DNA of 30,127 nucleotides from a virus (Duplodnaviria > Caudoviricetes), in IMG/VR virus record IMGVR_UViG_3300011334_000333, positions 1 through 30,127 of that record; one strand, 5' to 3'. The notes beneath the pieces were generated by a model. It worked only from the letters and a program-made list of their open reading frames with translations, was not told the origin of the DNA and searched no databases. The translations under genes and the position numbers were made by a program. Shown piece by piece: positions 7,114 through 21,616 of the stretch (the stretch's first letter is position 1; the number at the start of each line of letters is the position of its first letter).

Positions 7114-7617
7114 TTATTTCATTTCGTTATTAACTCGTTCAACTATTCTGTTCTTGCAGTTGGTTAGTGTGGTGTGAATACTCCTTACACTTATACCAGT
7201 TGCTTTGTGTATTTTCCTTATTGACTTTTCGTGAATCGTATAAACTTCATAAAGTTTCTGATCGTAAAAATCCCAACTTTGAATTTCGCTATCAATTATT
7301 TTATTCAGTTCATTTTTTTCAATATCGAAGTTTAAATCATTGTCGCTAAAATTTTCTAGTACTTCAACATCTACTTTTAAAACTTTACTTCTACTTTTTT
7401 TTAAGTCGTAAAATATATTGTGAAGTATTGAATAGACGTAAGGCGTGTTTAATTTGTCGTTCTTGAACCAAACATCTTTGTCTTTATTTGCGTGTACCTT
7501 TAGATACATTTCCTGAACTATGTCTTCATGAAAATCTAGTTCGCCAAAAGACTTAACAATCCTAATCCAATCGTTGTGTTTTTCTGAAACTATCTTTAAA
7601 AGTTCACTCAAAGTCAA
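7114..7617 (-). CDS. ECF-type sigma-70 family factor (probable late sigma)
   Basis: 167 aa; region-2-like 'HEDIVQEMYLKV...YVYSILHNIFYDLKK' and region-4 HTH 'SIRKIHKATGISVRSIHTTLTNCKNRI'; TTG start. Confidence 0.85.
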   Translation of the reverse strand: MTLSELLKIVSEKHNDWIRIVKSFGELDFHEDIVQEMYLKVHANKDKDVWFKNDKLNTPYVYSILHNIFYDLKKSRSKVLKVDVEVLENFSDNDLNFDIEKNELNKIIDSEIQSWDFYDQKLYEVYTIHEKSIRKIHKATGISVRSIHTTLTNCKNRIVERVNNEMK

Positions 7618-7628
7618 AAATATTTATT

Positions 7629-7636
7629 CAAATGTA
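7629..7636 (-). promoter_or_regulatory. Host-type -7 promoter element (TACATTTG) for sigma/terminase genes
   Basis: Matches the Bacteroidota TAnnTTTG consensus; intergenic and correctly oriented. Confidence 0.6.
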
Positions 7637-8371: not shown

Positions 8372-8551
8372 TTAATCGTTTTTAGTTGAATGAATACCGT
8401 TTGACTTTCCTTTAAGTCTCGGTTCTAATTCTTGCAATGTCTTTGCAAACTTTTTTAACGCTGGAATGTGTTTTCTAGTTACCTTGACAGTTACATATTT
8501 CCCGTCAATTACTGCCCTACGTCCAGCGTTTCTCTCGTTGTTTTTAATCAT
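8372..8551 (-). CDS. 59-aa basic protein, possible ribbon-helix-helix-type DNA binder
   Basis: Manual translation MIKNNERNAGRRAVIDGKYVTVKVTRKHIPALKKFAKTLQELEPRLKGKSNGIHSTKND*; ATGA overlap at 8548-8551; 'NERNAGR' then strand and helix. Confidence 0.6.
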   Translation of the reverse strand: MIKNNERNAGRRAVIDGKYVTVKVTRKHIPALKKFAKTLQELEPRLKGKSNGIHSTKND

Positions 8552-8787
8552 AATTTTTCTATTTCTTGTTTAACTTCTATCCAATACTCAGTGGTTTCAA
8601 AATCATAATATTCTCCCTGAATATGTATTTTAGATTGTGTCGACACAATCAACTCGTTAACTGCAATTAAAGCACATTTTATAGCCGATTCTAAATTTGA
8701 TGATAATTCAGAGCCATCAACATAACTAACCCAACTATAACCTTTAAATTTATCAAATAACTCCTGTGCTTTTTCTTTTGGACTCAT
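8548..8787 (-). CDS. Hypothetical phage protein (79 aa)
   Basis: 'MSPKEKAQEL...AIKCALIAVNEL...YWIEVKQEIEKL', a pattern common in Bacteroidota phage accessory genes. Confidence 0.75.
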   Translation of the reverse strand: MSPKEKAQELFDKFKGYSWVSYVDGSELSSNLESAIKCALIAVNELIVSTQSKIHIQGEYYDFETTEYWIEVKQEIEKL

Positions 8788-8810
8788 AATCTTTTCCGTT
8801 TAAATATATG

Positions 8811-8840
8811 CAAATATAACACTATTATTTTAATAAACAA
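8811..8840 (-). promoter_or_regulatory. Early promoter TTG-N19-TATATTTG
   Basis: Matches Flavobacterium-type -33/-7 consensus and spacing; spacer carries TTTATTAAAAT. Confidence 0.75.
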
Positions 8841-9647: not shown

Positions 9648-10496
9648 TTAAAGTCCACAATATCCGCTGTCGCAACTTGAAAAGTCGTTGTCATCAAATA
9701 AATTACCTTGTAAGTTAAATTTTAGAATGCTTGACATACTAGCATCACTTAAAAAAGTATTTCCCGTTTTCAATTCTTGACTTTGAAACCATTTAACCTT
9801 ATCAATATCTTTACTAGCCATGTGTGAAATCATTAAAGGATTACGATTAACGCAAGCTACACAGTTATTTCGATATGCAAATCTAACGGGTTTATCGTTC
9901 CAATAGCTATAGATAATATCTTTTGTAATATTTTCATCTATCAAAGGGAAACTTGCTTTTCGATAAGGAACTAAACCCCATTTATTTTGTGTTTTTCTTT
10001 TCCCTACAATAGTTTTAAAATATTCAAAACCGTCTTTATCTGCCCTTGCAAGCATATTTTCTGCTCTTTCCTTTTCATTTGGTCTATATCCAATTCTCAT
10101 TTCGCATGGTATAGAATTTTGGTCTTTAAGAAAATTAAATATAGGTTCTATTTTCATTTTTACCGTACAAAATCTGTTAGCCTTGTTTGGTAAATAATTA
10201 CCCGCTTTTTTTATAACTTGCTCAAATGTATCTCCAGAAATCCAATCTATCTTTTTCCCTATAAATTGTTCAAGGTCTAAAATTGTGTAAATAATTTCAT
10301 CCATTTCAGCTGTACCAATAAACTCTTTATCTATTTTGTCAGATACTATTTGGCGAGTCTTTTCATCTTTACCTTTCATCCAAAGACAATTTGTGTCTTC
10401 AACTCTTACAAGTGAAAATACATTTATGTCAGCTGGAAAATGTTTTGCTAAGTATGCAGATGTTTTACCACCGCTTATTGAGTTTACTGTTTTCAT
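9648..10496 (-). CDS. PAPS-reductase-like (PP-loop) protein with Cys clusters
   Basis: 'SISGGKTSAYL', 'RFCTVKMKI', 'NCVAC', 'CDSGYC'; start moved to MKTVNS (ATGA overlap 10493-10496). Confidence 0.8.
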   Translation of the reverse strand: MKTVNSISGGKTSAYLAKHFPADINVFSLVRVEDTNCLWMKGKDEKTRQIVSDKIDKEFIGTAEMDEIIYTILDLEQFIGKKIDWISGDTFEQVIKKAGNYLPNKANRFCTVKMKIEPIFNFLKDQNSIPCEMRIGYRPNEKERAENMLARADKDGFEYFKTIVGKRKTQNKWGLVPYRKASFPLIDENITKDIIYSYWNDKPVRFAYRNNCVACVNRNPLMISHMASKDIDKVKWFQSQELKTGNTFLSDASMSSILKFNLQGNLFDDNDFSSCDSGYCGL

Positions 10497-12983: not shown

Positions 12984-15164
12984 TCAAAATAATGTTAACG
13001 TGCTGTTTTTTTCCTCGATGCAATCTTTGTGGTTTTTCGCATTTAGAGCAAAGTAACTTTCTTTCAATTCAATTGATATTGATTTACGATTCATCTTTAA
13101 AGCACAAAAACCCTCGCTACCAATACCGCCAAATGGACTAAATACTGTTTCGCCCTCATTTGAGTACAAGTGAATAATTCTTTCAATTGTATCTAATTGC
13201 AAAGGGCAAATATGCTTTTCGTCATTTCCATCACGCCCAGAACGATATTGCAAAGTTCTGGAATAGTCAATATCATACCAAACTGGGGATGCGTATTTTT
13301 GCCACAAATCAACTGGTAAATAATCTTTTTTACTTTGGTCGGTATCTTGGTGTGTAATTGGCGTTTCGTTATCGCCCTCGTTTCTAAAAAATAAAACGTA
13401 ATCTGGAATACCTACTCTAGTCATTGAACTATCTTTTTTAATAGTTTTATGAAGTAATCCTAATGCTTTTGTTCTTTGCATTTCAGTTACTGGATTTTTC
13501 CATATTGTTGTTCTTGAATGGTAAACAAATCCATTTTCTTGAAACCAATCAATCAACATTCCAGAAAAGTCACGCAAACCAATATATCCCTCTTTTCCTT
13601 TTTGAATAGGTAAATCCATACAATGAATTGCACAAATACGCCCACTTTTCAAAACTCGTTTAAGTTCTGGAATAAGGAATTTAAAATGTTGCTCAAATTG
13701 AGTATAATCACTTACATTTCCCATATCTTCCTCTTTATCTGAATAGACATACAACTCAGCAAATGGAGGACTGAAAACGATTAAATCTGCTGAATTATCA
13801 GCAATGTTTTTACTTTCTTGAACGCAATCACCATTGATAATATGGTAATCGTTTGTTTTTACTTCTTTTTTCACAATATTAACTTTTGATTTTGCTGATT
13901 TATAATTTGCTTCACTTGAATAACGGCTCATTTCTTGAATCATTTCTAAGTGCCTTTGTTGTTTTTCCAGAATTGTTGCACGAACATTAATTTGACTTTC
14001 TGGAATTAAAATATGAACGGTTACTTTATTTTTTTGACCAAAACGATAGCAACGTCTAACGGCTTGATAAAATTGTTCAAACTTGAAATCATAAGACATA
14101 AATACCATTTCATTACAGTTTTGGTAATTCATACCGAATGAAGCGATTGAAGTCTTTGTAACAAGTACTTTGAATTCATTTCTTGCGAATCCATTAAGAT
14201 GCTTTGCTTTGTATTCTGGACTATCAGAACCTTGTACATTAATAGCGTTTTCAAGTTCCTTTGAAACAATATCCGTTTCATTATTTTTCAATCCCCAAAC
14301 AATTACTTGACCGTTTGAATTACTTACAATCTCTTTTGTTTTTTCGATTCTTAAATCAAATGACCTGCTTAAATCTTTATGTAAATCAGTAGCGCTTACT
14401 GCAACATCTCCAAATAAAGTATTTGTAAGGTTTTCAACTGGTATAATATGCTCAATATACTCTATTTCTGGGAGTGAATATCCATCATGATTAAAACCTA
14501 AAGTATTCGGATTATCGCAAGCCATTGACCAAGTACATACATATTTCCAAAATGGATCCTTTGCGTGCTTTCTCAATCTCCATTTACTTGTTTCGCCACC
14601 GTCATGAACAAAATACATTGCAAGCATTTCCAAATAAGACATTGCGCCTAAAAACTCCGAATGTTGACCAAGTTCCATATGGTCGTTTGGGGATGGTGTT
14701 GCAGTACAAGCAAGTTTGTAAGGAGTGTTTTTAAATGAATCAATTATCAAACTAGATAATTTACCATCACGACCTTTTAGAATTGAACTTTCATCGAGTA
14801 CAACTCCAGAATAAATACTACAATCAACATTTTTTAGTTGGTCGTAATTTGTAATATCAAAACATTCATTTGAAATTCCAAACTTAATCGATTCTTCTTT
14901 TGTTTGTTCAACAACTGCCAATGGTGCAAGAATCAAAACTTTTTTATTCGTTTGCTTGAAAACTGCATCACTCCATGAAAGTTGCATTAAAGTTTTACCT
15001 AATCCACAATCAAAAAACAATGCAAATCGACCTTTACTTAATGCTGTTTTTACTGCGAATTTTTGAAAGTCAAATAGATTTTGATTTAATTCATTTTCAT
15101 TAACATCAAAACCACTTTCAATAAATGATTTTTTCTTAGTGTCTAAGAAGTTTTTATAATCCAT
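12984..15164 (-). CDS. SNF2-like helicase fused to an N4/N6 DNA methyltransferase
   Basis: 'DCGLGKT', 'VLDESS', 'TATPSPND', 'QAVRRCYRFGQ', then 'GDCV', catalytic 'FSPPF', 'KHICPLQ' and SAM-binding 'FSPFGGIGSEG' (beta-class order). Confidence 0.9.
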   Translation of the reverse strand: MDYKNFLDTKKKSFIESGFDVNENELNQNLFDFQKFAVKTALSKGRFALFFDCGLGKTLMQLSWSDAVFKQTNKKVLILAPLAVVEQTKEESIKFGISNECFDITNYDQLKNVDCSIYSGVVLDESSILKGRDGKLSSLIIDSFKNTPYKLACTATPSPNDHMELGQHSEFLGAMSYLEMLAMYFVHDGGETSKWRLRKHAKDPFWKYVCTWSMACDNPNTLGFNHDGYSLPEIEYIEHIIPVENLTNTLFGDVAVSATDLHKDLSRSFDLRIEKTKEIVSNSNGQVIVWGLKNNETDIVSKELENAINVQGSDSPEYKAKHLNGFARNEFKVLVTKTSIASFGMNYQNCNEMVFMSYDFKFEQFYQAVRRCYRFGQKNKVTVHILIPESQINVRATILEKQQRHLEMIQEMSRYSSEANYKSAKSKVNIVKKEVKTNDYHIINGDCVQESKNIADNSADLIVFSPPFAELYVYSDKEEDMGNVSDYTQFEQHFKFLIPELKRVLKSGRICAIHCMDLPIQKGKEGYIGLRDFSGMLIDWFQENGFVYHSRTTIWKNPVTEMQRTKALGLLHKTIKKDSSMTRVGIPDYVLFFRNEGDNETPITHQDTDQSKKDYLPVDLWQKYASPVWYDIDYSRTLQYRSGRDGNDEKHICPLQLDTIERIIHLYSNEGETVFSPFGGIGSEGFCALKMNRKSISIELKESYFALNAKNHKDCIEEKNSTLTLF

Positions 15165-15186
15165 ACTTTTTTCGTTTAAGTGTCTG

Positions 15187-15213
15187 CAAATTTAATGAAA
15201 ACATTTTAATAAA
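15187..15213 (-). promoter_or_regulatory. Early promoter (TAAATTTG) with TTTATTAAAAT box
   Basis: TAnnTTTG upstream of ATG 15164. Confidence 0.65.
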
Positions 15214-15226
15214 CTTGCATTTTTTA

Positions 15227-15574
15227 TTATTTTTTTAACTCTGGCATTAAAACCATTTTAAAACCTACTTTTTGATTCCCTTGTTCCGCCCAAGTATTCA
15301 TCACTTGAACGGGTTTTTGTCTCGATTCTATTATCCACATCCAATTGTCTTTGAAAAAATCGTTATGATCTACCAAATCTTTTTGCGACTTTTCCAAATT
15401 TCTGATACTTGAAATGTTGCACCTGAATACTACCATTAAATCCCGCTTGCTGTAACCTTGTTTTCGTAGGTGTGCGTACACTAATTTTTTTAAGGTAACT
15501 AAGTAGCTTAATCTGTACTTTTCGTGGTGTTGAGGGTTAAAATACTCAATAAATACATCTAAAGGCTCTTTCAT
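15227..15574 (-). CDS. Hypothetical protein, possible HTH (115 aa)
   Basis: 'LRKQGYSKRDLMVVFRCNISSIRNL' is HTH-like. Confidence 0.6.
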   Translation of the reverse strand: MKEPLDVFIEYFNPQHHEKYRLSYLVTLKKLVYAHLRKQGYSKRDLMVVFRCNISSIRNLEKSQKDLVDHNDFFKDNWMWIIESRQKPVQVMNTWAEQGNQKVGFKMVLMPELKK

Positions 15575-15759
15575 TTTATCAAAGTGTAACTATTAGTAAA
15601 ATGTTCAACTGACTTTCCGAACTCACTTTTGTGCTTCGTGGTGTCTTGCTCTAAAATATTATACCATACCATTTTGTCAACTATGTAAGTTATCTCTACG
15701 ATTTGATGCCTTGTTACATTACTCCATTTCTGTCCTACTTTTACTTCTTCTACTATCAT
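15571..15759 (-). CDS. Hypothetical protein (62 aa)
   Basis: ORF track; coupled overlaps. Confidence 0.7.
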   Translation of the reverse strand: MIVEEVKVGQKWSNVTRHQIVEITYIVDKMVWYNILEQDTTKHKSEFGKSVEHFTNSYTLIK

Positions 15760-15977
15760 CTTAAAAAATATTTGATTATTTGTATTTTACTTAATTTTAC
15801 AAAGGCAAATTTACCCTCTATTCTTTGCATTACTCCGCCAACTTTTAAGGCAAGTTTAACGTTGCATTTTCTGCAACAAATACATTTACCTTGACTGGAC
15901 TTAATTTGGTACTTACTAGAATCCTTTTTGAATAAAAACAAAGGTTTCCTTTTATCGCATTTATAACAACGTTTCAT
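15756..15977 (-). CDS. Small zinc-finger-like protein
   Basis: 'CYKC...CICCRKC'. Confidence 0.7.
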   Translation of the reverse strand: MKRCYKCDKRKPLFLFKKDSSKYQIKSSQGKCICCRKCNVKLALKVGGVMQRIEGKFAFVKLSKIQIIKYFLR

Positions 15978-16196
15978 TTAAAAATTCATTTTACTAGGGT
16001 AAATAGCGCACTCGATGCCGTTTACTAATTCTATTCGTGGCTCAATTACGTAATCTATTTTAAATGAATACTCTTTATTAGACTCAATCTCATTCGCTCG
16101 TTTGACTTTCTCTAGTATCTTATCAAAAATACTTTTAAGTTCTTTACAGTCGTTAAAATTAGCGTCTATGCTTATTATTTTAGGTTTCGCTTTCAT
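15978..16196 (-). CDS. Hypothetical protein (72 aa)
   Basis: ORF track; abuts neighbours. Confidence 0.7.
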   Translation of the reverse strand: MKAKPKIISIDANFNDCKELKSIFDKILEKVKRANEIESNKEYSFKIDYVIEPRIELVNGIECAIYPSKMNF

Positions 16197-16199
16197 TAT

Positions 16200-16451
16200 T
16201 TACTTCTTAAGTATTAACAATGTTTGATTCTCTCCGTTTATTCCAACTGCGTGGATAATGTTTCCAATCTCTTTCATTTTGATAACTACTTGAAACATAT
16301 CAAAACTAATAACTGGATTTTTTGCAGTTCCTTTTTTCGCTAAATAACGCTCTATTGTCGTTTCTTTAAGCCAAGAGGGGCTAAATCTAGTACCCTCTTG
16401 TTTTGACCTCGCTAATGCTTTGTAGCGGTTTAAAATAGTTTCTTGTTCCAT
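16200..16451 (-). CDS. Hypothetical basic protein (83 aa)
   Basis: ORF track. Confidence 0.65.
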   Translation of the reverse strand: MEQETILNRYKALARSKQEGTRFSPSWLKETTIERYLAKKGTAKNPVISFDMFQVVIKMKEIGNIIHAVGINGENQTLLILKK

Positions 16452-16633
16452 GTTGCTAAAATTGCGTTTCCTATTGCTTGATCGTCCTCAGGTGATACGT
16501 AACCGATATTTCTATTTCTGTAATAAAGCCAAGCTCTTTTAAGGCTTCGTGGAAAATTACCTATTACTGAACTTGGTCCACATTTAAAATTTAACCAAGC
16601 CATTTTCATAACTTCTTTTTTTGAGATTTTCAT
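16430..16633 (-). CDS. Hypothetical protein (67 aa)
   Basis: 'SKKEVMKMAW...FPRSLKRAW' pattern seen in small early phage proteins. Confidence 0.7.
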   Translation of the reverse strand: MKISKKEVMKMAWLNFKCGPSSVIGNFPRSLKRAWLYYRNRNIGYVSPEDDQAIGNAILATWNKKLF

Positions 16634-16636
16634 AAC

Positions 16637-16822
16637 TTAATCGTTTAAAATGTAATCGTAACTAATAACTGTGTTTAATTTACCATTGAAATAAACGTTT
16701 CTAATGTACATACCGATGGTATTCCACTCAATCATGCCTTTTGCACTGCATGAAGTGTACTTTTGAGATTCTCTACGGTTTGTCGCTTTTTCTGATGCTG
16801 TAATTTTAGCTTTAATTCTCAT
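16637..16822 (-). CDS. Hypothetical protein (61 aa)
   Basis: ORF track; preceded by the AAACG leader motif. Confidence 0.65.
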   Translation of the reverse strand: MRIKAKITASEKATNRRESQKYTSCSAKGMIEWNTIGMYIRNVYFNGKLNTVISYDYILND

Positions 16823-16845
16823 AACTTTTTCGTTTAAATATTAAT

Positions 16846-16865
16846 GTGCGTTACAGTCGCACCCC
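16846..16865 (-). repeat. Intergenic hairpin copy 1: GGG-GTGCG-ACTGTAA-CGCAC
   Basis: Similar copy at 17449-17471. Confidence 0.6.
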
Positions 16866-16873
16866 TAAGATTA

Positions 16874-17071
16874 TTAATCCATTTTTTGCAATAAAGGTAA
16901 TATTTGCTTATTAGTTTTAAAACTATAAAACATACAATTTCGACCTCTAGCATCGTATTCATTTTTAGATACTACTCCAAGTTCGCATTTTGTTTTGTAA
17001 AACTTCATTAAACCATCAGTAATAAAAACTACATCTGTGTTTACTTCTAAGTTTGTTTGAGCTAAATTCAT
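16874..17071 (-). CDS. Hypothetical protein (65 aa)
   Basis: ORF track; has its own promoter and the AAACG leader. Confidence 0.7.
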   Translation of the reverse strand: MNLAQTNLEVNTDVVFITDGLMKFYKTKCELGVVSKNEYDARGRNCMFYSFKTNKQILPLLQKMD

Positions 17072-17094
17072 AATCTTTTCCGTTTTCGTTTCTA

Positions 17095-17126
17095 CAAATG
17101 TACGAAAACATTTTAATTAAATACAA
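17095..17126 (-). promoter_or_regulatory. Early promoter TTG-N21-TACATTTG with TTAATTAAAAT box
   Basis: Consensus match just downstream of a terminator. Confidence 0.7.
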
Positions 17127-17155
17127 CTTTTTTAAATTATTTTTGAAATAAAATG

Positions 17156-17190
17156 AAAAAATCCGTTAAACTCTAGGAATAACGGATTTT
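17156..17190 (-). terminator. Intrinsic terminator after the recombination operon
   Basis: AAAATCCGTTA / TAACGGATTTT 11-bp stem, U6 tail on the minus strand. Confidence 0.8.
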
Positions 17191-17235
17191 GAAATGTGTA
17201 CTTATGCTTTATGCAGTGATACGCCATTGATTAAT

Positions 17236-17433
17236 TTACACAAATTTTTGAAGTACTAAATGTTTTTTTCGTCTTTCTTCTAGTTTCGGACTTATAATAT
17301 TGTGGTCAAAACCGAAAGAAAATATCTCTTTCCCTTTCAAATATGCTTTTAAATGTGCTTTATCAAACGCAGTAGGATTAATTGTGTTTCCTAAAAATCT
17401 GCGTGACTGTCTTGGTTTTTTCAAATGATTCAT
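17236..17433 (-). CDS. Hypothetical basic protein (65 aa)
   Basis: ORF track; 'FDKAHLKAYLKG' motif. Confidence 0.7.
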   Translation of the reverse strand: MNHLKKPRQSRRFLGNTINPTAFDKAHLKAYLKGKEIFSFGFDHNIISPKLEERRKKHLVLQKFV

Positions 17434-17448
17434 AACTTCTATTTTAAT

Positions 17449-17471
17449 ATGCGTTAAAGATGCGCACCCCC
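17449..17471 (-). repeat. Intergenic hairpin copy 2: GGGG-GTGCG-CATCTTTAA-CGCAT
   Basis: Same stem, G-run, loop ending TAA and trailing ATTAA as copy 1. Confidence 0.6.
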
Positions 17472-17480
17472 TTGTTTAAT

Positions 17481-17774
17481 TTAAAATGGCATATCAGTTT
17501 CAGCAACTGCATTATCACTTGGCAAATCATTCTGAATAGACTTTTCAGCTACTTTAATAACGCCATCCGTCCAAATTACCCTACCGTTTGCGAAGTAGGT
17601 TTTCTTTGCGCCAGACTCTCGTTCCTCTTTTGTTTGGTTGTAGCACATTGAAACGTTGTTATCGTATTTCGTTTCGTTGTTTACGCTAATACTTACATTC
17701 AAGTATTTTCCGTCTTTAAGTTTTGATTTGTCAATCTTTGTTACATCAATCGACATTTGGATTATTGCACTCAT
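17481..17774 (-). CDS. Probable single-stranded DNA-binding protein
   Basis: Beta-rich 97 aa with acidic tail ending 'ETDMPF'; follows the exonuclease. Confidence 0.65.
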   Translation of the reverse strand: MSAIIQMSIDVTKIDKSKLKDGKYLNVSISVNNETKYDNNVSMCYNQTKEERESGAKKTYFANGRVIWTDGVIKVAEKSIQNDLPSDNAVAETDMPF

Positions 17775-17786
17775 ATTTACTTTATT

Positions 17787-18425
17787 TTAATTTAATTCAA
17801 ATTGAATATTAGTTTTTAATGATTCGATAAATTGCAACTTCAATTCAACTGCAATATCAATACGTTCTTTTATTTTATCGATTATAGCCTCGTCACGCTC
17901 GATTATTAGTTCGTGCCACATCTCAACCCCATTATAGATAATATAGTTGAAGAAATGGCATCTTTGCGAATTTGTGCAAAGCATTTGCATTTGCATCTGA
18001 TTAATGTAAAGTCTATCTATTGCGGAAATTCCTTTTTCTACGATCTTAAAAAATTTATTTGGTCTTGGGCATTTGATTTCTAAAATGGCATCACTACCAA
18101 TTAAACCGTCTGGACTTGCCCCAGCATGTTCCCCAAATGGGAAAAAACTAGCTGTTTCTGCTTTGATGAAATTAAATTGATTTACTTCATTAAACTTTGC
18201 CAGTGCTAAAGGTTCTAATTGAATTCCTCGTTGCATATCAAATGAAGTAAAACTTTCCTCTTCATTCCTACCGAATACAACCTCACAAGCATTCTGAAAG
18301 GCGTAATCTTCGCCAGTTAACCCTAATCCTTTAACTCCCATTAGTTCGTCAATACGGGACGCTGTAAAACGTCCCAATCTTTGATTAAACCATTCGTCTG
18401 TTCTTTGTTCAATTTCCTTTGACAT
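17787..18425 (-). CDS. YqaJ / lambda-exonuclease family nuclease
   Basis: 'QRTDEWFNQRLGRFTAS', 'MQRGIQLEP', 'GASPDGL', 'LEIKCP', 'QMQMQM'; start moved to MSKEIEQ. Confidence 0.9.
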   Translation of the reverse strand: MSKEIEQRTDEWFNQRLGRFTASRIDELMGVKGLGLTGEDYAFQNACEVVFGRNEEESFTSFDMQRGIQLEPLALAKFNEVNQFNFIKAETASFFPFGEHAGASPDGLIGSDAILEIKCPRPNKFFKIVEKGISAIDRLYINQMQMQMLCTNSQRCHFFNYIIYNGVEMWHELIIERDEAIIDKIKERIDIAVELKLQFIESLKTNIQFELN

Positions 18426-18918
18426 ACTCAATAAATTTTTGTTCAACTTCATTTGTTATTTGATAAACCTCTTTGATTTTCTCGATTGTTGCATTTGCGA
18501 TTTTTGCCTTTTCAAAATTAGCTTCAGTAAAAAATGGTTTTTCTTTTACTTGAATTTTAGGCTGCACTGGAGAAATTCGTACACCCCCAACTAGGTCGCC
18601 TTTCATCTTTACTGAATAGTCAATGTACAATTCAACAGGAATGTTTACCCAGTCTTGAACGTATGGACTTTTCCCAACTGAAAAACCTTTTAAAATTTTT
18701 GAGTTTGTAGCATTTAAAACTAAAGGTTTAATACTTTCATTGAAATAAGCAATATTAAAATCGCCTTTTTTACCAGCAACAGAAACGTTTAATTCTTGCT
18801 TAACTTGTTTGATTGTGAATATCAAAGAAATATTATTTTCTCTAAAATCTTCTAAATCCGCAACGCCTAAATGGTCGCTTTTGTACACTTTTCTAAAGTG
18901 GTCTTTCTTGTTTTCCAT
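18409..18918 (-). CDS. Exonuclease partner, candidate ssDNA-annealing/recombination protein
   Basis: 'KPLVLNATNSKIL...WVNIPVELY...GVRI'; occupies the annealase slot upstream of exonuclease and SSB. Confidence 0.55.
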   Translation of the reverse strand: MENKKDHFRKVYKSDHLGVADLEDFRENNISLIFTIKQVKQELNVSVAGKKGDFNIAYFNESIKPLVLNATNSKILKGFSVGKSPYVQDWVNIPVELYIDYSVKMKGDLVGGVRISPVQPKIQVKEKPFFTEANFEKAKIANATIEKIKEVYQITNEVEQKFIEYVKGN

Positions 18919-18940
18919 AATTAATTAATTTTCGTTTGTG

Positions 18941-18973
18941 CAAATATACTAAATAAGTTTTAATTAAATGCAA
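18941..18973 (-). promoter_or_regulatory. Early promoter (TATATTTG) with TTAATTAAAAC box
   Basis: TAnnTTTG upstream of ATG 18918. Confidence 0.7.
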
Positions 18974-18975
18974 GT

Positions 18976-19227
18976 TTATTTAAAGTTTTCTTTGTAGTAA
19001 GTTAAAGAATCAAATTTAGGTGCAGAATTTATGTGATATTGATATTCATATTCTTGACCTTCATCAAAGGCATCAATTATTTGTTGCTTTTCCATTTCTT
19101 TTGCTTGTTTAAATAAGTCTTTAATTGAGTTATCCATATCTCTTTTTAACAACTCTTGTCTTAGCCACTCAACTGCTGTTTGGTTTTTTATTTCTGCATT
19201 CATTGCTTTATAATCTCGTTCGTCCAT
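18976..19227 (-). CDS. Hypothetical phage protein (83 aa)
   Basis: 'QTAVEWL...QAKEMEKQQIIDAF...YYKENFK', a common Bacteroidota phage accessory pattern. Confidence 0.75.
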   Translation of the reverse strand: MDERDYKAMNAEIKNQTAVEWLRQELLKRDMDNSIKDLFKQAKEMEKQQIIDAFDEGQEYEYQYHINSAPKFDSLTYYKENFK

Positions 19228-19228
19228 C

Positions 19229-19402
19229 TTAATATTTATTTGATTCTAAAATAGCGATTGACCTTTTCAACTGCTTTACTTTTAATTCGTCTTCCTGAAT
19301 TTCATCTGCAAAGCGTGGATTATCCGCTTCGATTTTTTCAGATAAACGGCGCTCAATTTCCTTAAGCGTGTCTTTCATTTTTAGTATTGGGAAATCGTCC
19401 AT
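19229..19402 (-). CDS. 57-aa coiled-coil hypothetical protein
   Basis: Manual translation MDDFPILKMKDTLKEIERRLSEKIEADNPRFADEIQEDELKVKQLKRSIAILESNKY*; tight packing with neighbours. Confidence 0.65.
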   Translation of the reverse strand: MDDFPILKMKDTLKEIERRLSEKIEADNPRFADEIQEDELKVKQLKRSIAILESNKY

Positions 19403-19405
19403 AAC

Positions 19406-19480
19406 TCAAACAATTAACCAAAATAATAATACTGCTACATAAGCACCAAAAAATACTAGCGCGATTTTCTTTTCATTCAT
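19406..19480 (-). CDS. 24-aa single-pass membrane peptide, first early ORF
   Basis: MNEKKIALVFFGAYVAVLLFWLIV*; A-rich leader ending TTATG; directly after the promoter. Confidence 0.55.
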   Translation of the reverse strand: MNEKKIALVFFGAYVAVLLFWLIV

Positions 19481-19503
19481 AATTTAAATTTTTAAAGTTT
19501 CAA

Positions 19504-19530
19504 CAAATCTACAACCTACATTTTGATTAA
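19504..19530 (-). promoter_or_regulatory. First early promoter (TAGATTTG) with TTAATCAAAAT box
   Basis: TAnnTTTG at the late/early boundary. Confidence 0.65.
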
Positions 19531-19542
19531 ATACTATAATTG

Positions 19543-19574
19543 TGTTGAACGGTAAATATCAATGATAAACGGTA
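19543..19574. repeat. Direct repeat TGTTGAACGGTA / TGATAAACGGTA, 20-nt period
   Basis: Copies at 19543-19554 and 19563-19574. Confidence 0.55.
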
Positions 19575-19580
19575 TAAACT

Positions 19581-19608
19581 AAAAAAGCACCCCTTTACGA
19601 AGTGCTTT
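19581..19608 (-). terminator. Intrinsic terminator ending the lysis operon / sRNA
   Basis: AAAGCACUUC-GUAAA-GGGGUGCUUU stem ending in a U6 run. Confidence 0.8.
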
Positions 19609-19644
19609 AATGTACCTAAACGAAAACTAGTATGAAAAAACTTA
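19581..19644 (-). ncRNA. Candidate antisense small RNA (~63 nt)
   Basis: Bounded by TATCTTTG (19648-19655) and an intrinsic terminator; 5' half is complementary to early translation-initiation regions. Confidence 0.6.
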
Positions 19645-19656
19645 AGACAAAGATAA

Positions 19657-20205
19657 TTAAAATTCATTAAGAATAACCATCGACCAAATCTTTTGTGGTT
19701 CTAACAAATTTATAACTTTTAAATAGGTTGGTATGTCATTTAACACAATGCAACCCTCACTCCAACCGCCTATATTAGTCTTTACTATTTTACGGTTAAT
19801 GTCATGGTCTGCTGGATGAAAATTAAACCCCCGAATATCTGTCTTAACCTCAGTTGTTGGATTGGTTTTTCCGTCTGCAGTGAAATCTCTTTGATATTCA
19901 AAACCTACTCTTTGAAGTCCCGCTTTAACTTTGCCTTTATGCTTACCAATTTGATACGCTCCGTAGTTCCAAACATTCGCACAAACAACGCCAGTACCTT
20001 TATTTCCCTTGTTTGTTGTACATGAAGTAACCAGGACAAATTTTGATCCACGAAATAAATATAATTTGTCATCGAATTTATCCGTTTCGTCTTCTTGACT
20101 TCGAACTGCTAAAATCCAATAAGTTCCAGGAATACCTTTGTACCCTCTTACAAGTTTGACTTTCTCTAGTAATTCAATATCAGTATAACTTCTAACGTTG
20201 CTCAT
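19657..20205 (-). CDS. Probable endolysin with an L,D-transpeptidase (YkuD)-like catalytic motif
   Basis: 'GFNFH...NIGGWSEGCIVL' His...S.GC motif; last gene of the late operon, near holin-like genes. Confidence 0.7.
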   Translation of the reverse strand: MSNVRSYTDIELLEKVKLVRGYKGIPGTYWILAVRSQEDETDKFDDKLYLFRGSKFVLVTSCTTNKGNKGTGVVCANVWNYGAYQIGKHKGKVKAGLQRVGFEYQRDFTADGKTNPTTEVKTDIRGFNFHPADHDINRKIVKTNIGGWSEGCIVLNDIPTYLKVINLLEPQKIWSMVILNEF

Positions 20206-20451
20206 TTAATCTAAATTTAAACCGTAACTATTTAAAACTTCTCTAATTTTCTCCCTTAATTTATCCGAAACTTCTATTTCTGTATTTGATGCTTTCTCAT
20301 TGTGTTCTAAAATACTTGATTCATATTTTACAACGCCACGTAATTTTTGGTCTATGTTCCAAACTGCTAATTTCCACTTGTAACCATCAAGTGCCGTCCT
20401 AGCGTCGTCTTCCTCTTCACACGAATCGAATTCTAAAATTATTTTTGCCAT
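20206..20451 (-). CDS. Hypothetical phage protein (81 aa)
   Basis: 'IILEFD..EE.DARTALDGYKWKLAVWNIDQKLR' pattern. Confidence 0.75.
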   Translation of the reverse strand: MAKIILEFDSCEEEDDARTALDGYKWKLAVWNIDQKLRGVVKYESSILEHNEKASNTEIEVSDKLREKIREVLNSYGLNLD

Positions 20452-20453
20452 TT

Positions 20454-20520
20454 TTTTTGATTAATATATTAGCTAAATTACTCAAATATTTCCTTTTTGA
20501 CTAATATATTAGTCTAAATT
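20454..20520. repeat. Two copies of a palindromic operator-like sequence
   Basis: GACTAATATATTAGTC (20499-20514, perfect) and GATTAATATATTAGCT (20459-20474), 40-nt period. Confidence 0.75.
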
Positions 20521-21374
20521 GGAAACCCTTTACTATCTAAAAGTTTGTGCAATTTATCATTTTCACGTTTTACGCTTAGCATCAAAATACGTCCGCCTAA
20601 AGGCTTCGGAGGTGCGCCACGTTCAATGTGCCACCCTTTAGAACCGTCGCCGTATTCTTCCTTATACGTTCCTGTAATGCAATGGTGTATTTGTTTCAAT
20701 CTAATTTCAGTTATACCAGCGTTTGTATAAAGAATTTCTCTAGAGTCGTTTCTGCAGCTGTTTTCGTGGATATGCCCCATACTAAACAAGTCGAACCCCT
20801 CGTAAGTTTCCAACGCCCTAGTTAGATTTATTGCGCCCTTTGTAACAATACCGCCACCGCCTGAGCCGTGAAAATATTTGTGTCTAAAAGTTGCTTTTAC
20901 ATTTGTTCGATGCGTAACCTCGTAAATAATCCAACCGCCGTATCCACCAACTTGAACGTTTCCGCCCGTAGTCATGTTTAACAAGTCAACAAACCTTTGC
21001 AAAATGTCCGTTTCTTGCCACTTTATTACACTCGTTTCATGGTTACCATACGAAATAACAGTTAAGATGCTTACATACGGTGTAAACCACTCTACAGCCG
21101 TTTCAATAATAGAATCTAAATATTTAAAATTATTATGCTCTGGCAAGATGTCCGATTTATTCGCTCGTTTATCTCCACGCCCTTGCATCAAACAAAATAA
21201 ATCCCCAGTTATAACTACAAAAATATTATTTTTTAAGCAATAGTCTAAGTGCTTTTTAAGTAGCACCCTATCGCATTTTGGATTGTCCCAGTGCAAATCT
21301 GAAAGCAAAGCAATTTCATTATGTTCACCTGATAAAGATATCTTATGAACATTCTTACTAATTTTTTCTACCAT
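20514..21374 (-). CDS. Calcineurin-like metallophosphoesterase
   Basis: 'SDLHWD', 'GDLF', 'GNHE', 'FHG', 'GHIH' motifs in canonical order. Confidence 0.9.
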   Translation of the reverse strand: MVEKISKNVHKISLSGEHNEIALLSDLHWDNPKCDRVLLKKHLDYCLKNNIFVVITGDLFCLMQGRGDKRANKSDILPEHNNFKYLDSIIETAVEWFTPYVSILTVISYGNHETSVIKWQETDILQRFVDLLNMTTGGNVQVGGYGGWIIYEVTHRTNVKATFRHKYFHGSGGGGIVTKGAINLTRALETYEGFDLFSMGHIHENSCRNDSREILYTNAGITEIRLKQIHHCITGTYKEEYGDGSKGWHIERGAPPKPLGGRILMLSVKRENDKLHKLLDSKGFPI

Positions 21375-21385
21375 GTTTGGATTGT

Positions 21386-21616
21386 TTAGTCTTTCTCGAC
21401 TTTTTGACCGTTAAATACTGCTATGCCACCACTGACTGCCGTAACAACTGTTAAGATAGTTATTCCCAAAGGCGCTGTAACAACTCCAGCGCTTAAAATA
21501 GTACCAGCGATTACTCCAATAGCTGTGAAAATTCTGCCTATTCTTTTGTTCTTTTTTGGCGTTGGAGCTTCTAAGCGTTCCAATAAATCCATTTGTTCAA
21601 CATTCTTCATCTTCAC
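21386..21616 (-). CDS. Holin-like protein with two hydrophobic segments
   Basis: 'PTPKKNKRIGRIFTAIGVIAGTILSAGVV..LGITILTVVTAVSGGIAVF'; exact start uncertain. Confidence 0.55.
   Translation of the reverse strand: MKMKNVEQMDLLERLEAPTPKKNKRIGRIFTAIGVIAGTILSAGVVTAPLGITILTVVTAVSGGIAVFNGQKVEKD

Follow-up and report, generated by a model that had tools for sequence, protein, structure and literature searches.

The intergenic unit that follows the putative endolysin gene of this uncultured aquatic phage probably encodes a trans-acting small RNA (sRNA) that would repress the lead genes of the early operons by pairing with a tag in their leaders and with the start codon. The sequence and its comparison with relatives reveal a promoter box of the host phylum, a U-rich body free of open reading frames (ORFs) and an intrinsic terminator; the body is complementary to five early start regions, the arrangement is conserved, and the mirror of the tag in the seed and the tag itself change together between related phages, which makes a small RNA the likely nature of the unit. 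In phages it is usually proteins that shut off the early genes; an RNA acting on several scattered operons by way of a tag that co-evolves with it would be another kind of master switch.

The phage and its family

The window, that is the whole stretch of DNA analysed, is an entire virus record of 30,127 bases (CheckV completeness 94%), and all the genes accepted as real lie on its minus strand. Terminase, portal, helicase-methyltransferase, exonuclease, replication initiator and sigma-factor genes were recognised. The capsid and portal proteins of the window have cultured matches only in the Nonlabens (Persicivirga) phages P12024S and P12024L (27% and 34% identity), with which its terminase shares 57% identity. 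P12024S and P12024L have been placed in a large group of putative Flavobacteriaceae phages (PMC5332604), of which the window would also be a member; in the available text of another paper (PMC4615864) the P12024 phages are merely cited. Relatives of the window were collected by protein searches, and the family is a large one, 7967 of the 8000 scored capsid-protein clusters passing E 1e-20. A blastn search of the unit region against cultured phages gave zero matches.

Organization of the unit

The gene preceding the unit is called a putative endolysin from a weak Tlde1-domain match below the Pfam cut-off and from its position. On the minus strand, positions 19655 to 19581 hold in succession a -7 promoter box, a U-rich body predicted to be mostly unpaired and a terminator, the box (TATCTTTG) lying directly 3' of the stop codon of the gene 20205-19657 (Table 1). 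The consensus reported for Bacteroidota -7 boxes is TAHHTTTG, with transcription starting 4-5 nt downstream (PMC6847099; PMC9723704). No TTG at the -33 spacing is visible upstream of the unit in the window. The sequence, the coordinates and the matches given in the first-pass annotation are as it had written them. No RNA sequencing run was found for the stretch 15000-21500.

Table 1. Coordinates of the predicted sRNA unit, of the gene ahead of it and of the tagged early start regions in the window
Feature	Position	Strand	Remarks
Putative endolysin, final gene ahead of the unit	19657..20205	-	Pfam Tlde1_dom E 2e-4, below cut-off; phrog_3000, unknown function
Bacteroidota sigma-A type -7 promoter box TATCTTTG of the predicted sRNA	19648..19655	-	Fits TAHHTTTG
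Predicted sRNA, ~63 nt	19581..19643	-	5' end at 19643 or 19642, inferred from promoter spacing
Anti-start-codon stretch (U-run and CAU), complementary to AUG and A-rich first codons	19632..19640	-	
Seed UUUUCGUUU, predicted mostly unpaired	19618..19626	-	From unpaired probabilities; invariant in 13/13 aligned rows
Intrinsic terminator hairpin and U6 tail	19581..19608	-	Hairpin 19608-19584, U6 19586-19581
Box 18948-18941, tag 18937-18929 and start codon of the 169-aa gene heading the recombination module	18916..18948	-	Rank 3/54
Box 17102-17095, two tags (17091, 17085) and start codon of a 65-aa gene	17069..17102	-	Rank 5/54
Tag and start codon of a 61-aa gene, second in its operon here	16820..16836	-	Rank 2/54
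Box 15194-15187, tag 15177-15169 and helicase-methyltransferase start codon	15162..15194	-	Rank 1/54; best of 3009 sense-strand windows
Box 8818-8811, tag 8801-8793 (one G-U pair) and start codon of a 79-aa gene	8785..8818	-	Rank 4/54

The unit folds with z = -3.37, none of 200 shuffles being equally stable, and a search with 4227 Rfam families gave zero matches anywhere in the window at E<=1. By its predicted promoter of its own, its intrinsic terminator and the lack of a conserved ORF, the unit has the marks of a trans-acting base-pairing sRNA; a further mark of such RNAs, a seed that is predicted to be accessible, is conserved and is complementary to distant mRNA start regions, is likewise present. 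A scan for sigma-70 promoters stayed at chance level (27 vs 26.8), and a search for the Bacteroidota box was used instead.

Complementarity to tagged early start regions

The motif AAACG(A/G)AAA is found in six copies on the minus strand of the window, each of them 13-20 nt upstream of one of five start codons (18918, 17071 with two tags, 16822, 15164 and 8787), and in a single copy on the plus strand, within the unit itself. The body of the unit is complementary to this tag and to the AUG in all five early start regions. Four of the five lie immediately 3' of host-type promoters: the intergenic -7 boxes 18948, 17102, 15194 and 8818 share an upstream TTAAAA context and are followed by tagged leaders of 17-19 nt. 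The remaining one, that of the 61-aa gene at 16822, has no -7 box of its own in the window and is promoter-led in five related genomes. The targets sit 0.7-10.8 kb from the unit, in four other predicted transcripts, and the 79-aa gene heads a run of genes leading to the phage sigma-factor gene. The gene that is the best predicted target (12984-15164, minus) encodes a 726-aa fusion of a helicase domain with a DNA methyltransferase domain.

Duplex energies with the unit were ranked over 54 start regions, which were picked by us from the ORF list (the 24-aa ORF at 19480 is too short for that list). It had been anticipated in the first-pass annotation that the AAACG-tagged genes would rank top, and the five tagged starts indeed occupy ranks 1 to 5, with -22.1, -19.4, -17.1, -16.8 and -16.6 kcal/mol, the next value being -16.2. 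Among the individual matches that it had proposed, the one at 15164 is real and ranks first of the 54 but requires a one-base bulge, and the one at 16633 is present but marginal (rank 14/54, -13.3) and not convincing. For the four promoter-led targets the mean duplex energy is -18.15 vs -9.15 +/- 1.63 kcal/mol in dinucleotide shuffles, none of 500 reaching so low a value; the longest exact match observed was reached in 6 of 500 shuffles. When the genome was scanned by sliding windows without accessibility, just two of the five targets were among the 12 best sense-strand windows, and coding windows equalled three of the five in score, so that the specificity is one among start regions and not one of raw duplex energy genome-wide. 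Poor targets include the first early gene (19480, -11.1), the replication initiator (-11.4) and the sigma-factor gene (-7.2).

Conservation in close relatives

The box, the seed and the hairpin are kept in all 14 closest loci, which were found with the endolysin protein; one of these is identical to the window over the unit stretch and is not independent. In the 13 aligned rows TA..TTTG and TTTTCGTTT are invariant, and the two free box bases, the spacer length and the terminator sequence vary. In the aligned hairpin 80% of the cells are paired and two pairs are altered on both sides; in relatives the sequence of the terminator is replaced, with hairpin and tail retained. The CAU of the anti-start-codon stretch is retained in 12 of 16 close loci.

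Two sources of the RNA had been suggested in the first-pass annotation, a promoter of its own and the 3' end of the late lysis transcript, and it is the former that proved conserved, the fixed positions of the box being invariant and its two free bases variable. The box also stays with the unit away from the lysis gene, as seen in G008, where the unit has moved upstream of the endolysin gene with box and terminator retained, in the second unit of G007 and in P12024S. Read-through of the late operon into the same terminator may also be a source of RNA. Among 163 loci examined by eye, 18 carry the unit right behind the endolysin stop codon, mostly another gene being found there in the rest. One or two units are present per phage, and the two of G007 have seeds that fit two different leaders. 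Nine endolysin-related records have neither a unit nor an antisense copy of the leader motifs (four are complete and were read whole, four are 63-89% complete, and G015 was read partly), and the unit is thus not needed family-wide.

Covariation of seed and leader tag

IMG/VR was scanned with a pattern in which the promoter box, the anti-AUG and the terminator end were fixed and the seed was left unspecified, which returned at least 120 loci (about 130 estimated) with at least 62 distinct units. Their seeds differ and mirror the promoter-led leaders of their own phages, with AACAATTAA, AATTAAACAAAG, AAAGCAAGAA, AAAACCTAA and AAACCAAAT tags. Under one rule set, 56 genomes or long loci were scanned, 27 of which were dropped before the matrix for want of a detected unit or same-strand leader; the other 29 had both, six of their units being taken from the scan pattern where the terminator finder had missed them. 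These 29 were assigned to 18 seed groups by shared unit sequence, with one representative each.

In the cross matrix of the 18 groups, calculated with the anti-AUG and the AUG removed, own pairs gave -6.72 vs -4.17 kcal/mol for foreign pairs, and the centred diagonal was reached in none of 200,000 permutations. The covariation of seed and leader motif in related phages, which had been put forward earlier as a check, was therefore seen across the groups. The own genome took rank 1 or 2 in 12 of the 18 rows; in the other six groups the own fit is poor (ranks 5, 6, 7, 14, 14 and 17), rank 6 being that of G007, for which the scanner retained one of its two units. The own-genome effect is absent from non-transcribed promoter DNA (61,377/100,000 permutations) and from the same-sense unit (58,424/100,000), is at most weak in other start regions (7,129/100,000), and persists both in the 13 groups with at least two leaders (0/100,000) and in the six groups first found without the pattern scan (127/100,000, near the floor of 1/720). 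In the TerL tree, for which 17 of the 56 records gave usable sequence, long branches meet, and for this reason no count of seed switches is claimed.

Distant and cultured relatives and host genomes

Distant relatives, including P12024S and P12024L, have the same architecture with a different seed that fits their own leaders. The two cultured phages carry one unit each, between late genes (at about 10174-10250 of JQ823122.1 in P12024S), the complement of which matches 12 and 11 bases, respectively, of a promoter-led leader; in P12024S this best-matching leader (12 exact bases) has an energy rank of only 9-11 among 59 start regions, which makes the cultured case thinner than that of the window. 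As the large family includes these cultured phages with their cultured host (Persicivirga/Nonlabens IMCC12024), the idea is directly testable. The pattern of the window's unit occurs in none of the 401 host-phylum genomes searched, and a portal protein was found in two of them, at 25-26% identity. An integrated distant relative was observed in a GC-rich genome (G210:C22, L369-L370, around 359-398 kb); no unit was detected in it, and one of its ORFs looks, as judged by eye, like a serine recombinase.

Alternative readings of the unit

The alternative that survives best, though we consider it unlikely, is that a phage repressor binds the tag as an operator in the DNA immediately behind the early promoters, and that the unit holds an inverted extra copy of it. 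The tags do lie at about +1 to +20 of the promoters, where operators are often found, and repressor-operator pairs likewise diversify between lineages; HTH_3 has weak matches in 8 of the 29 genomes, and the tally of G-U wobbles, in which changes are few (A>G 4, A>C 2 and A>T 5 of 432; C>T 5 and C>A 4 of 74; G>A 2 of 32), is compatible with pairing of RNA and with recognition of DNA alike. The orientation speaks against an operator, as it is nearly always antisense in the unit and sense in the leaders: leaders match the antisense of their own unit in 92 of 132 pairs and its sense in 7, pairs between close kin included. Moreover, the unit usually mirrors the AUG and the first codons too (12 of 16 close loci), there is no conserved ORF that it could control, its end is a terminator, the window holds no HTH_3 match, and the tag is also present upstream of 16822, a start that has no -7 box of its own here.

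Less probable again is that the RNA is real and does pair with the leaders, but with the effect of stabilising or activating them or of attenuating their transcription, and not of blocking ribosomes. Pairing at the extreme 5' end of a transcript could shield it from nucleases, and the P4 CI RNA has been reported to work via termination (PMC4825925); however, the predicted duplexes cover the AUG and the initiation adenines, the leaders are short, A-rich and without evident inhibitory structure, and pairing at such sites by the Bacteroides RNAs GibS and FopS results in repression (PMC7366714, PMC11697453). It is very improbable that the unit is no more than the terminator of the late operon, joined to an early promoter-leader cassette that was inverted and survives as a remnant without function: U-rich DNA will partly complement any A-rich Bacteroidota start region and nine related records do without the unit, but the -7 box faces the direction of the RNA and varies at its free positions only, the seed stays invariant between flanks and a terminator that do change, and the fit of own over foreign pairs is specific to promoter-led leaders and would need a new inversion in each lineage. 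A short peptide as the product is the least credible reading, since of the two frames open in the window the plus-strand 12-aa ORF (19632-19670), named in the first-pass annotation, is not conserved (in 12 of 16 loci it is 2-14 aa long with only MK in common, and the other 4 lack it) and has no -7 box on the plus strand between 17138 and 19926, and the minus-strand 46-aa ORF (19667-19527) is open in a single one of the 16 loci, the one whose sequence equals that of the window, 11 others having ACG there.

Proposed mechanism and role

For the preferred reading, an sRNA that represses early lead genes, we infer the following course of events. The host polymerase would make the RNA from its own host-type promoter, and the RNA would pair over the leader tag and the AUG of the early lead genes, so that ribosome initiation is blocked. 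Bacteroidota lack Shine-Dalgarno signals, and their ribosomes have been reported to rely for initiation on adenines at -3, -6, -12 and -13 (PMC6847099). As the leaders are just 17-19 nt long, the duplex would cover most of the leader, key adenines included, together with the AUG; initiation would be expected to be blocked because these adenines promote it in the phylum and because GibS and FopS repress at such sites. A block at the lead gene could be polar on the tightly packed genes downstream. Since RNA and targets both have host-type boxes, the RNA would accumulate after the onset of infection and might then damp the recombination, helicase and other early operons, which would make it a timer of the lytic cycle or a limiter of dosage. 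More RNA could be supplied late by read-through from the lysis gene, and silencing of later-arriving phages with the same tag would be a by-product.

A tyrosine integrase (PF00589) was found in none of the 29 genomes, which, together with HTH_3 matches that are weak in these genomes and lacking in the window, the rarity of the portal protein in host-phylum genomes (2 of 401) and an integrated copy without the unit, favours a lytic timer or dosage limiter; a plasmid-like or carrier state would be compatible with these results. As the main role of the RNA, a lytic timer is tentatively preferred, at somewhat less than an even chance; exclusion or carrier-state immunity, the latter being a possibility raised in the first-pass annotation, is doubtful in that position, and other repressive roles are improbable. 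In the number of its seed versions the unit is reminiscent of specificity systems that have diversified, and kin with the same seed may exclude each other. Lambdoid immunity groups are defined by CI-operator pairs; it is conceivable, if rather unlikely, that a repressor-free RNA immunity code exists here, in which the sRNA addresses the early operons via a private leader tag and the diversified seed-tag pairs define the exclusion groups. If true, a very large family of Flavobacteriaceae phages from aquatic habitats could do without integrase or CI and still have superinfection exclusion or a carrier state. Seed-tag pairs could also be put to use in Bacteroidota as compact, orthogonal elements for controlling translation.

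With respect to the late genes, AAGTC(T/A)AT was observed 4-6 nt upstream of four late starts (29676, 28477, 26204 and 5215, minus), which account for four of its seven minus-strand hits, and is a candidate promoter of the phage sigma factor; late messages made with this factor would plausibly be near-leaderless and without the tag. A sigma-factor-like gene with a TTG start (7114-7636, minus) has its own -7 box at 7636 and lies outside the tag set. P12024S has a different motif (CGTTAAT) at similar late places.

Relation to known RNA systems

GibS and FopS, which pair with start regions and thereby repress (PMC7366714, PMC11697453), resemble the unit in belonging to the same phylum, in a single-stranded seed that pairs around several start codons and in an intrinsic terminator; FopS has canonical sigma-ABfr promoters, and one FopS-like sequence has been seen in a phage (PMC11697453). 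Both are, however, host-encoded RNAs with metabolic mRNA targets and a seed conserved in the family, GibS being about 145 nt long, whereas the unit is 63 nt long and phage-borne, matches the early leaders of its own phage and has a seed that is rewritten by lineage along with a dedicated tag. Two features of GibS and FopS were looked for and not found: the seed differs between the 18 groups, and in place of several chromosomal copies there are one or two units per phage, with the unit pattern in 0 of 401 host-phylum genomes.

In the P4 CI RNA, as in the unit, it is an RNA and not a protein that would control the phage's own early genes by base pairing (PMC4825925). P4 CI arises by processing of the very transcript on which its targets seqA and seqC lie, and it causes premature termination in the lysogen (PMC4825925); in contrast, the unit carries a -7 box of its own, its targets are located on four other predicted transcripts, and pairing is predicted over start codons. 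Control of the phage's own early genes by a base-pairing RNA has reportedly also been found with c4 of P1 and P7. Neither processing from a target-bearing leader transcript nor a match to a curated RNA family, which were tested as features of P4 CI and P1 c4, is seen for the unit. By analogy, the unit may combine a mechanism like that of GibS and FopS with an aim like that of P4 CI; it lacks tested features of both and is not assigned to either.

Antisense RNAs that repress phage genes have been described for several phages, namely sar of P22, OOP and aQ of lambda, PAK_P4as15 and STnc6030, the last of which confers superinfection exclusion (PMC12197685). Each of these is antisense to one gene, and the available text of that source, which deals with single-target antisense RNAs and host-directed sRNAs, describes no shared tag on several dispersed operons (PMC12197685). 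The layout of the tag recalls the SAS of Cluster K mycobacteriophages, a repeated asymmetric motif found before gene starts, always in the same orientation but for a rare opposite-strand copy, whose partner, RNA or protein, was left open by the authors (PMC3203893); the window has six sense copies and one opposite-strand copy. SAS differs from the tag in the phylum of the host and in being a 13-bp motif over a Shine-Dalgarno-like site, with no antisense RNA gene or covariation reported in the text available (PMC3203893), and the tag, compared by eye with the 13-bp SAS consensus, is a different, A-rich sequence. In the literature searched, with subscription papers mostly outside its scope, no phage RNA targeting a shared early-leader tag has been described. 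The main text of a catalogue of 10,006 candidate viral RNAs (PMC10690425) names no Bacteroidota phages, and its supplements could hold the terminator or the unit.

Neighbouring features

The 59-aa gene at 8372-8551, possibly encoding a DNA-binding protein, gave no match at 0.9 in an Atlas search and no family. Two copies of TACCGTTYA, 20 bases apart, lie between the terminator and the first early box at 19511 (19574-19546, minus); they are kept in close relatives and may be the binding site of a DNA-binding protein. The first gene behind this box is a hydrophobic ORF of 24 aa (19480-19406, minus), with similar starts in several relatives, the product of which could be a small membrane or exclusion peptide. 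Ahead of the replication initiator, a promoter box is followed by a structured leader of 122 nt (12678-12548, minus; -30.3 kcal/mol).

In some relatives (L061:12104, L066:2637, L069:7715 and L151:10530) a promoter-led RNA was observed in which a 5' octamer is complementary to the 5' arm of the terminator; between L061 and L151 bases are altered on both sides, as judged by eye, and this RNA is possibly an attenuator. A second promoter-RNA-terminator unit, in tandem or nearby, is present at L009:8661, L197 (G002), L013:1652 and L175:9433 (G008); the second units of G002/L009 and G008 are not U-rich and had no target identified. A version of the RNA with an extra 5' hairpin ahead of the anti-AUG and the seed is found at L016:9191 (G008).
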